From Candidatus Heimdallarchaeota archaeon (lineage in GTDB: Archaea; Asgardarchaeota; Heimdallarchaeia; Heimdallarchaeales; Kariarchaeaceae), in NCBI GenBank assembly GCA_030149205.1, contig JASBSB010000001.1:390001-422000 (forward strand): 32,000 nt of DNA, given 5' to 3'. This document shows positions 5,348 through 28,931 of this stretch, one piece after another. Position 1 is the first letter of the stretch. Each line of letters starts with the position of its first letter. Under the pieces are notes generated by a model. That model was given only the letters and a program-made list of their open reading frames with translations, did not search any database and was not told the DNA's origin. A program made the translations under genes and the position numbers.

Positions 5348-6403
5348 TTATCCAAAAAATGAATCCAATGATGTTTGACTCCTTAAAATTTCGATTTCTC
5401 TTGCTGTTTTAAAAATTAAAGGTTTATGTCTTGCTTCAGAAAACCCTCGTTCCTCTACAAGAAACTTAAGGATTTTTTCTGGATCATATTCATGAAATTC
5501 CACACTCACACCTTTCTTAACATTCGGATTTAAAAAAATTTCTCGAATCTCTTCATAGGGAACCTCTACCTCTTTAATTCTATCCACATTTTTCTGAATA
5601 GATTCAAAGCTTCCATACTCTTTGATATATTTAAATGCAGTTTTAGGGCCAACCTTTTTAAAACCCCCTGGGTTAAAATCAGAACCAAGAAGAACCCCTA
5701 AATCTATCAGCTGTTCCTTGGTAATTTGCAATCCATCCAATAAATCTCTTAGATTAATTTCCTCAGGGCTAATTGTTATAACTTTCCCCCCAGGAAGATT
5801 TCGTTTCCCACTCAAATTTAGATTTCTTACCAAAGTCGGAGCTCCAAATAATAATGCGTCATAGTCCTGAGATGCTGTTGCATGAGCTATTCCCTCTATT
5901 GTTAACATTGCTGCTTGAGCTTCACCCTCTCCCGGGGCTTGTACAACTGGAATACCCATTGCTTCTAACAATTTTTTTGAATCATCAACCATTTCGGGAG
6001 TAAGTCTGGAGAGTCTCTGTCCCATTTTTTTTGCTCTTATCAGGTCACCCTCTTTCATTGCCTTTTCGTACTCTTTTTCAGCTATTTTTTTTTGTTTTGA
6101 CCTATTTTCAATCTCCTGATGTTTTAAGGGATGAGATTCACCATCAAATACATAAACTGGTTTTATACCTTTTTGAAGAAGTTGTGAATTTCTTGTAAGT
6201 AAGCCTATTAAATGTGAAGTGACTCTTCCTTCGTGGTCTGTCAATGTTTGACCTGTCTGATCCCTTATAGTTGAGAGAAATTGATATAGAACATTAAATG
6301 CATCAAAGGCCATAATTCTATCTTTAAACTCTTCCAAATTCCTTTCTTTCTTGAATGGAATATTTGACTCATCCAAGAGAGCGGAAAGATTCTTTACACC
6401 CAC
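5348..6403 (-). CDS. fen: Flap endonuclease 1 (archaeal FEN1) with C-terminal PCNA-binding PIP box
   Basis: MGVK start, AFDAFNVLYQFL, TSHLIGL, PVYVFDG, QAPGEGEAQAA, SQDYDALLFGAP, LGSDFNPGG and terminal QTSLDSFFG (5354..5377). Confidence 0.97.
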   Translation of the reverse strand: MGVKNLSALLDESNIPFKKERNLEEFKDRIMAFDAFNVLYQFLSTIRDQTGQTLTDHEGRVTSHLIGLLTRNSQLLQKGIKPVYVFDGESHPLKHQEIENRSKQKKIAEKEYEKAMKEGDLIRAKKMGQRLSRLTPEMVDDSKKLLEAMGIPVVQAPGEGEAQAAMLTIEGIAHATASQDYDALLFGAPTLVRNLNLSGKRNLPGGKVITISPEEINLRDLLDGLQITKEQLIDLGVLLGSDFNPGGFKKVGPKTAFKYIKEYGSFESIQKNVDRIKEVEVPYEEIREIFLNPNVKKGVSVEFHEYDPEKILKFLVEERGFSEARHKPLIFKTAREIEILRSQTSLDSFFG

Positions 6404-6491: not shown

Positions 6492-7433
6492 TTAATCTGA
6501 AATTACATCAACTTGAATCCCATTTTGCTCCGATTTTATTGTTAATGTGGGAAGTACCCAGTTTGTGTACCAGTTCTCAATACGTTTTACACGTTTTTCA
6601 ATTTCATCAACAGTTGGTTGGTTTAGAACACATTTAACAGTACATAAACTACATGCAAAATGTTTTTCAAAATATTTGAAACATCTGTCAAAATCAATTT
6701 TATAATCAACTGATGGAATGACTTGCAATGGGAATGGATAATCTCTATTTGTTATTGCTGAGACTGGGCAATTACCAACACAATATTTACACCGAGCACA
6801 AAAAGCAGAAATACCACGATCTATTGGTTGGTCTATTTCTATTTCTGCATTTATTGAAATTGCTGATAACCTTACCAGTGAACCAAATTTAAAGTCGATA
6901 AACAACCCTGTTCTACCCTTCTCTCCCAACCCAGCCTTATATGCTAAAGGACTAAAAAGCAAAAAGTGATTATCGAACCTATCACCTAACGGATGATGTC
7001 CCCATACATCATATCCTAAAGATTTCAATTTAGAAGTTAATTTAAGAGTTTTATCTCCAGCCTCAGCATAGGCATGTAAAATTTCTGTTGCTGATTCTAA
7101 AGAAGGAGCAGAGTTCATCCTAGAATAATCTTGCTTTGTTACCAAAACTATCACTTTCGAATTCACAAATCTATCAGACTCAGAAACTAAAAATACTTCT
7201 TCTTTAGATATCTCAGTCACTCCAAATCTTTTAACTCCTACTTCTTCTAGTAGTTCATTTAATTCTTGTCGTTCAAGAACTCGCTTGAGTCTTCTTGGGT
7301 TTTCAAGATTAAGTAAATCTAAGTTTTTTTGTTGATTTATCAATCGAGCCCTTAGCCTTTTTTGCTCGTCTGTTACAGTAGTCCCACGTGGTTTTATTTT
7401 AGAAAGTCGTTCCTGATTAGCGGGATTTAACAT
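6492..7433 (-). CDS. QueG/reductive-dehalogenase-like 2x[4Fe-4S] protein (putative cobalamin-dependent reductase)
   Basis: AYKAGLGEKGRTGL, FGSLVRLSAI, CxxCxxCxxxCP (CARCKYCVGNCP) and a second Cx9CxxCxxxC cluster. No Tat RRxFLK signal is visible. Confidence 0.75.
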   Translation of the reverse strand: MLNPANQERLSKIKPRGTTVTDEQKRLRARLINQQKNLDLLNLENPRRLKRVLERQELNELLEEVGVKRFGVTEISKEEVFLVSESDRFVNSKVIVLVTKQDYSRMNSAPSLESATEILHAYAEAGDKTLKLTSKLKSLGYDVWGHHPLGDRFDNHFLLFSPLAYKAGLGEKGRTGLFIDFKFGSLVRLSAISINAEIEIDQPIDRGISAFCARCKYCVGNCPVSAITNRDYPFPLQVIPSVDYKIDFDRCFKYFEKHFACSLCTVKCVLNQPTVDEIEKRVKRIENWYTNWVLPTLTIKSEQNGIQVDVISD

Positions 7434-8127: not shown

Positions 8128-8217
8128 TGGACTGAGCGGGATTTTCGAGATTTATCTTTTCGAACCCGCGGCTGCTAGTATGCGAAACTAGCACTCTACC
8201 AACTGAGTTATCAGCCC
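8128..8217 (-). tRNA. tRNA-Ala (anticodon CGC) with a 17-nt intron at 59/60; CCA not encoded
   Basis: Full cloverleaf: acceptor GGGCTGA/TCAGTCC with G3:U70 and A73 (Ala identity), D stem ACTC/GAGT, anticodon stem CTAGT/ACTAG with loop TTCGCAT, T stem GCGGG/CCCGC. Mature length is 73 nt after intron removal. Confidence 0.96.
8142..8158 (-). other. BHB tRNA intron in the T-loop (59/60)
   Basis: GCGGG-TTCG-AAA-AGA-TAAA-TCT-CGAA-AAT-CCCGC forms a 4-bp central helix TTCG/CGAA with two 3-nt bulges. Canonical cleavage restores the T-loop TTCGAAT. Confidence 0.93.
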
Positions 8218-8361
8218 ATTAATCTACCTCTTTTGTGTCTATTTTGAACATTCCCATAACAATCGAAATTCTCAGTGAATTGAGATAAATTATTTTCAAA
8301 ATCAATGATTCATTATTTAGAGATTGGTGAGATTTAAAATCAATGAAACACGGTGTGGAGT

Positions 8362-9408
8362 ATGGTAACTCAAGCTGAGATGAACCTAATCACAGGAGTT
8401 TCATTCATTGTTATAGGTGCGTTATTCAAACTTAAATCAAGGAACAATTTATTCAATAAAGGAGATTCTTGGGCATATTTCGCAATTTTTCATGGGATTG
8501 ATGAAGCTTTTGATTCTTTGAAAAATTATTCTATTTTTTCATCTGTTAAACTCTGGTTTGAAAAGGGCGAAATAATTTTCTTTGCTCTTTCAGCAATTTT
8601 TCTAATAATTGGAACATTGATAGTATTCGACATAATCCCACCAAAGCATGAGCTTGAGCTCGGGTTGATATTTCAAAGTCCATTTGTCTTGTTGGTCTTA
8701 ATTGCTAATGAAACAACAATAGACGTAATTGAAACAGCAAGAGTTTCAATAGGTGGATTTGAGTTTAGTTTAATTGCTCTTAGTTTTGGAGTGATCCCGA
8801 CAATTCCTTTGATAATTGCTCTGCTAATAAATTTCCTCCAAACTAGACGCAAATTCAAAACTATTGGGAACACAAAAATAATTGGATATGTGATAGTTTC
8901 GATGATGCTTACAGCTTATGCGTTTTCTGAACTCTATGCAAGTACCAATAATAATTTTCTGCTTTTAGAAATATTTGCAATTGCAGTAGTTCTTCTTTTC
9001 CCTGTTGAGTATAATCTTTCTGGAGAGAGTGGGGTACAACTATTTGTCCTTTATCACAAAAGTGGAATTCCTGTAACTTCCATACACTTTAATACGAGTA
9101 TAGACAGAGATACTGTTAATCTTGTGACCTCATTTTTGTCAGCAATAAAAACCTTAGTTGAAAATGAACTTGAGCTAGGGGAATTACAAGATATTCAGAC
9201 TGATAAGGGAACTTTGGTGTTAGTTCAATTAGGGGAGTTCATTTTAGCAACTCTCACATCAAGTTCTCCGAAAAAAATCAAAGAAAAATTGTTTCAAATC
9301 TCTGACACTCTTTCTTTAACTCTCAAAGACATTAGACCTGAAATAGTTGATTCAGCCAAAATTGATCAAATTGATACAATGATAATAAAACAACTAGAAC
9401 TACAATGA
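8362..9408 (+). CDS. Seven-TM membrane protein fused to a C-terminal longin/roadblock-like domain
   Basis: About seven hydrophobic segments lie in the first ~220 aa. The region from ~9031 (VQLFVLYHKSGIPV...LVTSFLSAIKTL...LGELQDI...FILA) matches the typical Asgard longin pattern. ATG 8362 is preferred over the track's GTG 8353 because GGTG/GGAG lies just upstream. Confidence 0.72.
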   Translation: MVTQAEMNLITGVSFIVIGALFKLKSRNNLFNKGDSWAYFAIFHGIDEAFDSLKNYSIFSSVKLWFEKGEIIFFALSAIFLIIGTLIVFDIIPPKHELELGLIFQSPFVLLVLIANETTIDVIETARVSIGGFEFSLIALSFGVIPTIPLIIALLINFLQTRRKFKTIGNTKIIGYVIVSMMLTAYAFSELYASTNNNFLLLEIFAIAVVLLFPVEYNLSGESGVQLFVLYHKSGIPVTSIHFNTSIDRDTVNLVTSFLSAIKTLVENELELGELQDIQTDKGTLVLVQLGEFILATLTSSSPKKIKEKLFQISDTLSLTLKDIRPEIVDSAKIDQIDTMIIKQLELQ

Positions 9409-9474: not shown

Positions 9475-10107
9475 CTATCTTGCACCTTCTGCAGCATCAA
9501 AGAGAATTGAAGCAGCTAAAATTAGTCTACGATCCAATTTTGCATCTGGTGATACTGTCATTGTATAATTGTCTCTAAGTTTCGCAAGTCGGTTGTATTC
9601 CCCTATCTTGTTTCCGTTAATATCAAATATCTCAAAATGCAGTCTCATAAATATTTGAAGTATTGGTCCAATAATTGGTATTACGGATAGGATTCCGAAT
9701 TTTCGAACAATGGTCTTGAACATAGATTTAGCGCTTGCCCATCCAATAACTTCACCTGATTCTGTCTGAAACTCCCATCTTTCTCTTAACAAACTATGCC
9801 AAAACCTTCTTTTGAGGACTCCAACCATTTCATTATTTTCTAAATCATGAACCCTAAATCTAGCCCAGGCATCTAAGAAGGTCTCATCATAAAGAATAAT
9901 TATTGGATGAGATTTCGTATCTGGATCATCAAAGATAACTACATCCTTATGGAAAAAGAATCTAGCTCTTTTTGCCCAGAATAGTTTTTGATCAGTAGCT
10001 CTATCCTTGATATCATATGCTTCTTGAAACGTAAATAACCTCCTTATACTTTGGGTTACTAACAGTTCATTGAATACTAGTTTTTCTTCTGTTGTTTTTT
10101 CCAACAT
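9475..10107 (-). CDS. LURP-one/phospholipid-scramblase (tubby C-terminal-like) family protein
   Basis: Repeated beta-hairpin pattern (YDIKD...LFWAK; FRVHD...VGVLKRRF; FEIFD..GNKIGEY) and a terminal hydrophobic helix DRRLILAASILFD. Confidence 0.72.
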   Translation of the reverse strand: MLEKTTEEKLVFNELLVTQSIRRLFTFQEAYDIKDRATDQKLFWAKRARFFFHKDVVIFDDPDTKSHPIIILYDETFLDAWARFRVHDLENNEMVGVLKRRFWHSLLRERWEFQTESGEVIGWASAKSMFKTIVRKFGILSVIPIIGPILQIFMRLHFEIFDINGNKIGEYNRLAKLRDNYTMTVSPDAKLDRRLILAASILFDAAEGAR

Positions 10108-10245: not shown

Positions 10246-11091
10246 ATGCCTGAGGGCCCAGAAGTTGAAATTGTTAAAAGAGGGTTGTTAGCAATAAAAA
10301 ACCAGCAAATTTCACAAATAATTGTATCAAACCACCCGAAATACAACCTTATTCAAGATAGACTTTCTCACATCTCAAGGGTTTTAGATATACATAGAAT
10401 TGGAAAATTTTTGATTTGGGAATTTGATTCAAACGTTTTTGCAATTAACCATCTTGGAATGACCGGTATTTGGTCTATTCAGAATACAAAAGAAGAGAGT
10501 AATTTACAAGAACTTGTTTTAAAGAAACATTTCAAACTAGGCTTTCACTGTGATTCTGGGGATTTTTTCATGTTTGAGGATATTCGAACATTTGGTAGAT
10601 TTGAAATTTATAATGATGACCCTAGAAAATTTCATCCAACGTTAGTAAATATGGGACCTGATATCCTTGATAAAAATTTTAGCAATGTTGAATTTTCAAA
10701 ACGTTTGAAAGGAAAGGGGTCAAGGGGGAGATCCGCTGAAATTGGAAATGCTTTGCTCAACCAATCAATAATTGCAGGATGTGGAAATATTTACAAATCA
10801 GAATCATTATTTTTAAGTAACATAGATCCAAGAAGAAAGGTAAACACATTATCTGACACAGAGATGAACAAATTAGGAGAATCACTTCAAATTGTTGCAA
10901 AGAAAGCCTTAGAAGCAGGGGGATCTACAATACGTGATTTTGTTACAGTAGATGGGTATGATGGATTAATGCAGAATGAGTTTAAAATTTACGGGAAAGA
11001 AAATGAGCCTTGCCCAAACTGCCAATCAACTATTATAAAGATTAAGCAAGGAGGGAGATCAACATATTTATGCGCAAAATGTCAAAAATAA
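10246..11091 (+). CDS. mutM: Formamidopyrimidine-DNA glycosylase/AP lyase (Fpg)
   Basis: N-terminal catalytic MPEGPEV, HLGMTG, FEDIRTFG, H2TH motif LLNQSIIAGCGNIYKSESLF, GGSTIRDF loop, and C4 zinc finger CPNC...GGRSTYLCAKCQ. Confidence 0.93.
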   Translation: MPEGPEVEIVKRGLLAIKNQQISQIIVSNHPKYNLIQDRLSHISRVLDIHRIGKFLIWEFDSNVFAINHLGMTGIWSIQNTKEESNLQELVLKKHFKLGFHCDSGDFFMFEDIRTFGRFEIYNDDPRKFHPTLVNMGPDILDKNFSNVEFSKRLKGKGSRGRSAEIGNALLNQSIIAGCGNIYKSESLFLSNIDPRRKVNTLSDTEMNKLGESLQIVAKKALEAGGSTIRDFVTVDGYDGLMQNEFKIYGKENEPCPNCQSTIIKIKQGGRSTYLCAKCQK

Positions 11092-28834: not shown

Positions 28835-28931
28835 TGGACGGTTGGGGAATTTCATCTGGTTTTAACCAAATTTTGAACCCCAGGCCTCTTCCACGCCAAG
28901 GAAGCGATCTACCGGTCTGATCTAACCGCCC
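28835..28931 (-). tRNA. tRNA-Ala (anticodon GGC) with a 23-nt intron at 59/60; CCA not encoded
   Basis: Acceptor GGGCGGT/ACCGTCC with G3:U70 and A73, D stem GATC/GATC, anticodon stem CTTCC/GGAAG with loop TTGGCGT, T stem TGGGG/CCCCA. Mature length is 74 nt. Confidence 0.96.
28849..28871 (-). other. BHB tRNA intron in the T-loop (59/60)
   Basis: TGGGG-TTCA-AAA-TTTGGT-TAAA-ACCAGA-TGAA-ATT-CCCCA forms a 4-bp central helix TTCA/TGAA with two 3-nt bulges. Splicing restores TTCAAAT. Confidence 0.93.

Follow-up and report, generated by a model that had tools for sequence, protein, structure and literature searches.

Non-canonical BHB introns of archaeal tRNA genes were reportedly described by Marck and Grosjean in 2003 and by Sugahara in 2008 from Crenarchaeota, especially Thermoproteales. 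Position 59/60 is among the listed non-canonical tRNA intron positions in Archaea, in Crenarchaeota (PMC4090602). Asgard archaea also have such introns. In Atabeyarchaeia and Freyarchaeia 92-95% of the tRNA genes contain introns, which are often non-canonical and multiple (Valentin-Alvarado et al. 2024; PMC11291895). A 2026 preprint on 90 Asgard genomes reports introns concentrated at the anticodon loop and the T-arm, with canonical BHB motifs and repeated gains (bioRxiv 10.64898/2026.10.13.758758). With an additional paper (PMC5829648), these reports answer a question left open in a preliminary description of the present locus, whether T-arm or other non-canonical tRNA introns had been described in Asgard archaea. 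The locus is a real tRNA-Ala gene of a Heimdall-type Asgard archaeon with its T-loop split by a 17-nt intron, and it is an unexceptional example of the heavy and often T-arm interruption of Asgard tRNA genes known from publications of 2018, 2024, and 2026.

The gene is found on the minus strand of the window, which is the whole 32,000-nt stretch of DNA that was analyzed, and its extent is exactly as first described (Table 1). The parse gives a class I tRNA with an alanine anticodon and stems of 7, 4, 5, and 5 bp. These are the acceptor stem (GGGCTGA/TCAGTCC), the D stem (ACTC/GAGT), the anticodon stem (CTAGT/ACTAG, with the 7-nt loop TTCGCAT), and the T stem (GCGGG/CCCGC), and the variable region is CAGCC. 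The acceptor stem includes a G3:U70 wobble (G3:T70 in the DNA), which is the alanine identity pair, and the discriminator A73 is also present. The sole anomaly is that the T-stem halves are 24 nt apart and not 7, the sequence between them being TTCG AA|A AGATAAATCT CGAA AA|T. The two halves of the gene are contiguous and collinear, so a split or permuted tRNA was dismissed. Once the 17 nt are taken out ARAGORN calls tRNA-Ala(cgc), and the identity and anticodon assigned earlier are thus borne out by both the parse and the spliced form.

Flanking the tRNA, a FEN1/XPG-type flap endonuclease (window 5348-6403, minus strand) and a Fpg/Nei-type glycosylase (10246-11091, plus strand) are ordinary DNA-repair enzymes, while the three ORFs adjoining the tRNA (6492-7433, 8353-9408, and 9475-10107) have no Pfam match. 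The FEN1 is 61-73% identical to those of MAGs labelled Candidatus Heimdallarchaeota, which bears out an Asgard host.

Table 1. Features of the tRNA-Ala(CGC) gene and its intron, in window coordinates.
Feature	Coordinates	Strand	Evidence
tRNA-Ala(CGC) gene, 90 nt with intron, read 8217→8128 (G1 = 8217, discriminator A73 = 8128); no encoded CCA	8128..8217	-	Parse; ARAGORN call after 17-nt removal; orthologue pairing
5' exon, tRNA positions 1-59	8159..8217	-	Parse and alignment
Anticodon CGC, positions 34-36	8182..8184	-	Parse and ARAGORN on spliced form
17-nt intron at 59/60 (A-AGATAAATCT-CGAA-AA)	8142..8158	-	Missing in 4 intron-less orthologues; excision gives 7-nt T-loop
5' bulge AAA, predicted cut after second A (59|intron)	8158..8160	-	Sequence and BHB rule (literature)
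Central BHB helix, exon strand T54-T55-C56-G57	8161..8164	-	Pairs with 8144-8147, probability 0.89-0.98
Inner hairpin h' (AGA-TAAA-TCT), weak	8148..8157	-	3 bp; shuffle P = 0.055 alone; probability 0.14-0.36
Central BHB helix, intron strand CGAA	8144..8147	-	Pair probabilities 0.89-0.98
3' bulge AAT, predicted cut before T60	8141..8143	-	Unpaired in MFE and centroid folds
3' exon, positions 60-73 (T60, CCCGC, TCAGTCC, A73)	8128..8141	-	Parse and alignment

The sequence between the T-stem halves contains the elements of an archaeal splice motif. The TTCG of the T-loop pairs with CGAA of the insert to form a 4-bp central helix, a 3-nt bulge lies 3' of each strand, and the T stem serves as the outer helix h (probability 0.997). 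The predicted intron begins with AAGAUAAAUC and ends with CGAAAA. Removing it leaves TTCGAAT with the predicted spliced junction GGGUUCGAAUCCCGC, and excision at the bulges gives a standard tRNA of 73 nt. The preliminary description had the helix and both bulges in the correct register and had noted that cutting past the second bulge nucleotide regenerates TTCGAAT, as the sequence confirms; its placement of the 17-nt insertion at 59/60 agrees with the parse, the alignment, and removal in silico. Its word "perfect" for the BHB was its one overstatement, and a slight one, because the inner helix h' is marginal. This helix consists of just AGA/UCU, and it has a rival in an A58-U70 pair with a probability of 0.80.

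The predicted folds show the same division between a strong and a weak half of the motif. The unspliced RNA forms a cloverleaf with a lengthened T arm (-33.1 kcal/mol, z = -4.39 versus shuffles), and the spliced 73-mer is a clean cloverleaf (-30.4 kcal/mol). Pairing of A58 with U70 stretches the central helix to 5 bp and leaves a loop of 11 nt in the dominant predicted fold. Because the helix is extended in this way, the 5' cut site would fall within the loop in isolated RNA, similar to a bulge-helix-loop. Only a minority of the precursor is predicted to adopt the strict hBHBh' fold. In these models the h-B-H half of the motif is robust, while the 5' site is nearer to bulge-helix-loop.

The dominant fold has no clean 5' bulge, and this would suit excision of the insert in another register (57/58 or 58/59) or by another route, as a bulge-helix-loop with a 5-bp helix. 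The A runs make the registers 57/58, 58/59, and 59/60 equivalent in their mature product, and 59/60 is singled out among them by the BHB rule alone. Bulge-helix-loop substrates are cut by the loop-bearing EndA of A. pernix (PMC3241643). However, the strict register of 4 bp and 3 nt with a real h' is possible in 22 of the 24 paralogous introns of this genome, and the ruler of the enzyme is set by the 3' bulge. Excision at a site other than 59/60 or by another route is thus very improbable, and it would leave the mature product unchanged.

BHB-like motifs are so common that such a motif is uninformative by itself. With a relaxed rule 121,977 are detected in the 16% of the genome that does not belong to long ORFs. 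Removal of the motif gives a tRNA detected by ARAGORN in 32 cases, and the Ala(CGC) locus is among these.

The geometry is identical to that of canonical introns at 37/38. In both there is a 5-bp stem, the first four bases of the loop are paired to the 3' part of the intron, and the cuts come after loop base 6 and before loop base 7, so that positions 54-57 correspond to 32-35 and 59/60 corresponds to 37/38. The difference is that the Ala(CGC) intron is on the T arm, so that the elbow of the T-loop is masked and not the anticodon.

Orthologues from related organisms support the position of the intron. Intron-less tRNA-Ala(CGC) genes are present in four genomes of this family, which belong to three other genera, and in one of these genes, from a related genus (L003), the last 27 nt match the predicted spliced product without a difference. 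In the alignment of the orthologues the insert falls cleanly within the T-loop. At this site a fifth orthologue, from another genus (G008), contains an intron of 31 nt, with the TTCG/CGAA helix and the AAA/AAT bulges found here and an unrelated interior. Pairing in the four stems is 100% across the six Ala(CGC) orthologues, compensatory changes are seen at nine pairs, and G3:U70 is invariant. At the G008 locus (G008:C59:10433-10790) a tRNA-Ser(GCT) gene lies about 200 nt from the Ala(CGC) gene on the opposite strand, and each of the two has a 31-nt T-loop intron. The normal 7-nt T-loop of the intron-less orthologues argues against a mature tRNA-Ala(CGC) that keeps the 17 nt in an enlarged T-arm. 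The elbow between T-loop and D-loop requires U54-U55-C56-G57, and in the unspliced RNA these bases are locked in a helix; retention of the insert is extremely unlikely.

Some of the data would fit a decaying pseudogene in which the insertion is not removed and GCG is read by tRNA-Ala(UGC). The genome has a tRNA-Ala(UGC) gene (G000:C8:124991-125082) with a 37/38 intron and an intact T-loop, and it could decode GCG by wobble, so that Ala(CGC) is not strictly required. An Ala(CGC) orthologue was not found by BLAST in three genomes of the same genus, which are 82-89% complete. A degenerate pattern also gave no match in the same genus, but it was too strict and missed the known G008 gene, and absence from the genus is therefore not implied. 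Gene neighborhood was of no help: there is no Ala tRNA near five FEN1 loci of named Heimdall-type MAGs, and homologues of a neighboring 351-aa protein are present in two same-genus genomes with no tRNA beside either. A promoter is not evident, as no clear archaeal TATA box was found upstream of the gene and the region about 24-33 nt before +1 is merely A-rich (TTCAAAATAG). The unspliced gene scores 20.7 bits with Rfam RF00005, below the cut-off of 29. Against decay, all stems are intact with compensatory changes relative to the orthologues that preserve pairing, G3:U70 and A73 are retained, and the insert has exactly the register needed to regenerate TTCGAAT and to form a splice motif. The same design is found in 23 other genes, including the sole genes found for several anticodons. 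These observations make a pseudogene very unlikely.

The tRNA genes were surveyed across the whole genome, whose 12 contigs total 3.31 Mb at 35% GC. In the census one or two BHB candidates were removed from the sequence, which was then rescanned; miscalls were corrected by hand, and BLAST was used for absent isoacceptors. The total is 45 tRNA genes, and 24 of these have a 59/60 intron of the Ala(CGC) design. Seven genes are intron-less, 14 have an intron at 37/38 only, 12 at 59/60 only, and 12 at both sites, giving 50 introns or about 1.1 per gene. Positions 37/38 and 59/60 are the only sites used, and no D-arm inserts were found. BLAST with the 5' halves of Leu and Arg genes recovered the 24th T-loop-intron gene, Leu(TAA); Arg(CCG) is the sole isoacceptor that was found neither in the census nor by this search. 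A loose regular expression for the T stem and acceptor stem, run for further T-loop introns, was swamped by chance matches.

All 24 T-loop introns have the order T stem, TTCR, 3-nt bulge, hairpin, YGAA, 3-nt bulge, T stem. The inner helix averages 4.25 bp, compared to 0.65 bp in shuffles, and the hairpin sequences differ from one another. The intron partner is TGAA in all 15 TTCA genes, while among the nine TTCG genes it is CGAA in seven and AGAA in two; base 57 therefore covaries with the opposing intron base in 22 of the 24. Pro(TGG) (G000:C2:480733 region) and Leu(TAA) (G000:C4:455845-455960) have 30-nt T-loop introns with a common 3' end (TTGAGAAA), and with AGAA opposite TTCG the central helix contains a G57·A mismatch, which sets this relaxed motif apart from the other 22. 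Ala(CGC) and Glu(CTC) both have 17-nt introns, with AAATCT in common; the idea that these are copies of one another was rejected since the similarity is indistinguishable from chance in AT-rich 10-mers. A second T-loop-intron gene is present in the window itself (28835-28931, minus strand), tRNA-Ala(GGC), with a 23-nt intron at 59/60 (TTCA AA|A tttggttaaaaccaga TGAA AT|T) whose inner helix has 6 bp.

The sole genes found for the anticodon of Trp, of Asn, and of Asp, for both Gln anticodons, and for both Glu anticodons contain 59/60 introns, as does one of the three CAU (Met/Ile2) genes. Processing of such precursors must therefore take place in the cell, and no other indirect argument for splicing of the Ala(CGC) intron is as strong. 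Alignment at +1 of the regions upstream of the 24 genes gave no positioned TATA-like signal. The 45 tRNA genes were also scanned for hairpins in the 26 nt before the mature +1. A hairpin of -4 kcal/mol or lower that ends 0-5 nt before the mature 5' end is present in 19 of the 45, versus one of 45 control windows further upstream. The stem sequences differ, and the Ala(CGC) gene is without such a hairpin. These hairpins may be a 5'-leader structure tied to processing.

The genome encodes the enzymes expected for splicing of these precursors. There are two EndA paralogues (C4:500350-500844 and C2:623316-623762) and an RtcB ligase. The alpha paralogue is closest to A. pernix EndA alpha (E value 3e-31), and the alignment runs end to end without gaps through the loop. 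Its residues at the aligned catalytic positions are Tyr, His, and Lys, the His being placed where the crystallized mutant 3AJV has Ala. When it is aligned to 3P1Z_B, K72 and K74 are opposite K44 and R46 of the Crenarchaea-specific loop. Cleavage of non-standard motifs and at non-standard sites by A. pernix EndA depends on K44 (PMC3241643). In the second paralogue a Ser aligns with the catalytic His in KEHSVY of M. jannaschii EndA, which fits a putative structural subunit. Compared to the alpha2-beta2 enzyme of A. pernix (PDB 3P1Z/3AJV), the alpha subunit is similar in its loop lysine and catalytic residues, whereas the second paralogue, known here from sequence, is nearer to the EndA of M. jannaschii and M. 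kandleri than to the crenarchaeal beta subunit. Asgard archaea, including a Heimdallarchaeote, are reported to have an alpha-beta EndA with an L1 loop (PMC5829648), and the findings here agree with that report.

These findings lead to a probable pathway for tRNA-Ala(CGC). Its primary transcript would carry the 17-nt T-loop intron, and in the precursor U54-U55-C56-G57 would pair with the intron CGAA in a 4-bp helix stacked on the T stem. A58-A59-A(intron) and A-A(intron)-U60 would be the 3-nt bulges, one on either side of this helix. A two-subunit EndA, composed of the catalytic alpha with its crenarchaeal-type loop and the second paralogue, would cut past the second base of each bulge, and RtcB would then ligate the exons and rebuild the T-loop UUCGAAU. 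We infer transcription, cleavage at exactly the 59/60 bonds, and ligation from the sequence. Overall tRNA-Ala(CGC) is very probably a functional single-copy gene with a BHB precursor that is cut by the two-subunit EndA and joined by RtcB.

Standard annotation tools do not recognize many of these genes, as the preliminary description had anticipated for Ala(CGC). ARAGORN makes no call at the Ala(CGC) locus, either on the window or genome-wide with the -i option, and Rfam has no match there at the gathering score. The -i option of ARAGORN looks for introns in the anticodon loop only. About 22 tRNA genes of the genome are recovered by standard tools. Several real tRNA genes receive the wrong anticodon from ARAGORN -i because the intron is misplaced: Lys(UUU) is called "Stop", Pro(CGG) "Phe aaa", Ala(UGC) "Ser tga", and Arg(UCG) "SeC". 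In addition, a "tRNA-SeC" and a "tRNA-Lys" with introns of 69 and 138 nt (G000:C4:656008-656167 and C2:550767-550995) look like false positives in AT-rich sequence. Half of the tRNA genes in the genome, Ala(CGC) included, escape both ARAGORN and Rfam at its cut-off, and automatic annotation would therefore give an impossible tRNA set.

The genome can be compared with both groups of known systems. It resembles the crenarchaeal examples in the 59/60 position, the hBHBh' logic, the shortness of the introns, and the co-occurrence of 37/38 introns in other genes. It differs in that the host is a Heimdall-type Asgard archaeon and in that two sites are used, compared to many in Thermoproteales. The published Asgard tRNA introns are similar in host, in their location at anticodon-loop and T-arm sites, and in their canonical BHB motifs. 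That work focuses on Atabeyarchaeia, Freyarchaeia, and Jordiarchaeia, where there are about two introns per gene and many D-arm inserts. Several lineages of Heimdallarchaeia are reported there to have fewer than one intron per gene, compared to about 1.1 in this genome, where no D-arm inserts were found.

The presence of T-loop introns varies among close relatives, in line with the published repeated gains. A simple T-loop-intron pattern, which misses longer introns, has 25 matches in this genome (control 3) and 0-10 in each of 60 relatives; with gaps of up to 41 allowed, matches in the controls became too numerous for genomes to be compared. Thr(GGT) has a T-loop intron here and is intron-less in two genomes of the same genus. 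It is possible, though unlikely, that in this lineage T-loop introns are under selection and not neutral. On that view a recent burst, specific to the lineage and directed to one preferred site, would account for the unusual density (24 in 45 genes, and the excess of pattern matches over the 60 relatives) together with the presence and absence differences between genera and even within the genus. Selection might act on the order of maturation, since U54-U55-C56-R57 would be locked in the splice helix and the elbow would stay unfolded until EndA acts. Alternatively, the introns might interrupt sequence of the T-arm and 3' end that archaeal integrases use as attachment sites.

The Ala(CGC) gene alone alters nothing in the published account of repeated tRNA-intron gain in Asgard archaea. 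What is added to that account, and bears on it, is a data point from a Heimdall-type genome in which the tRNA genes have on average about 1.1 introns, at two sites only.
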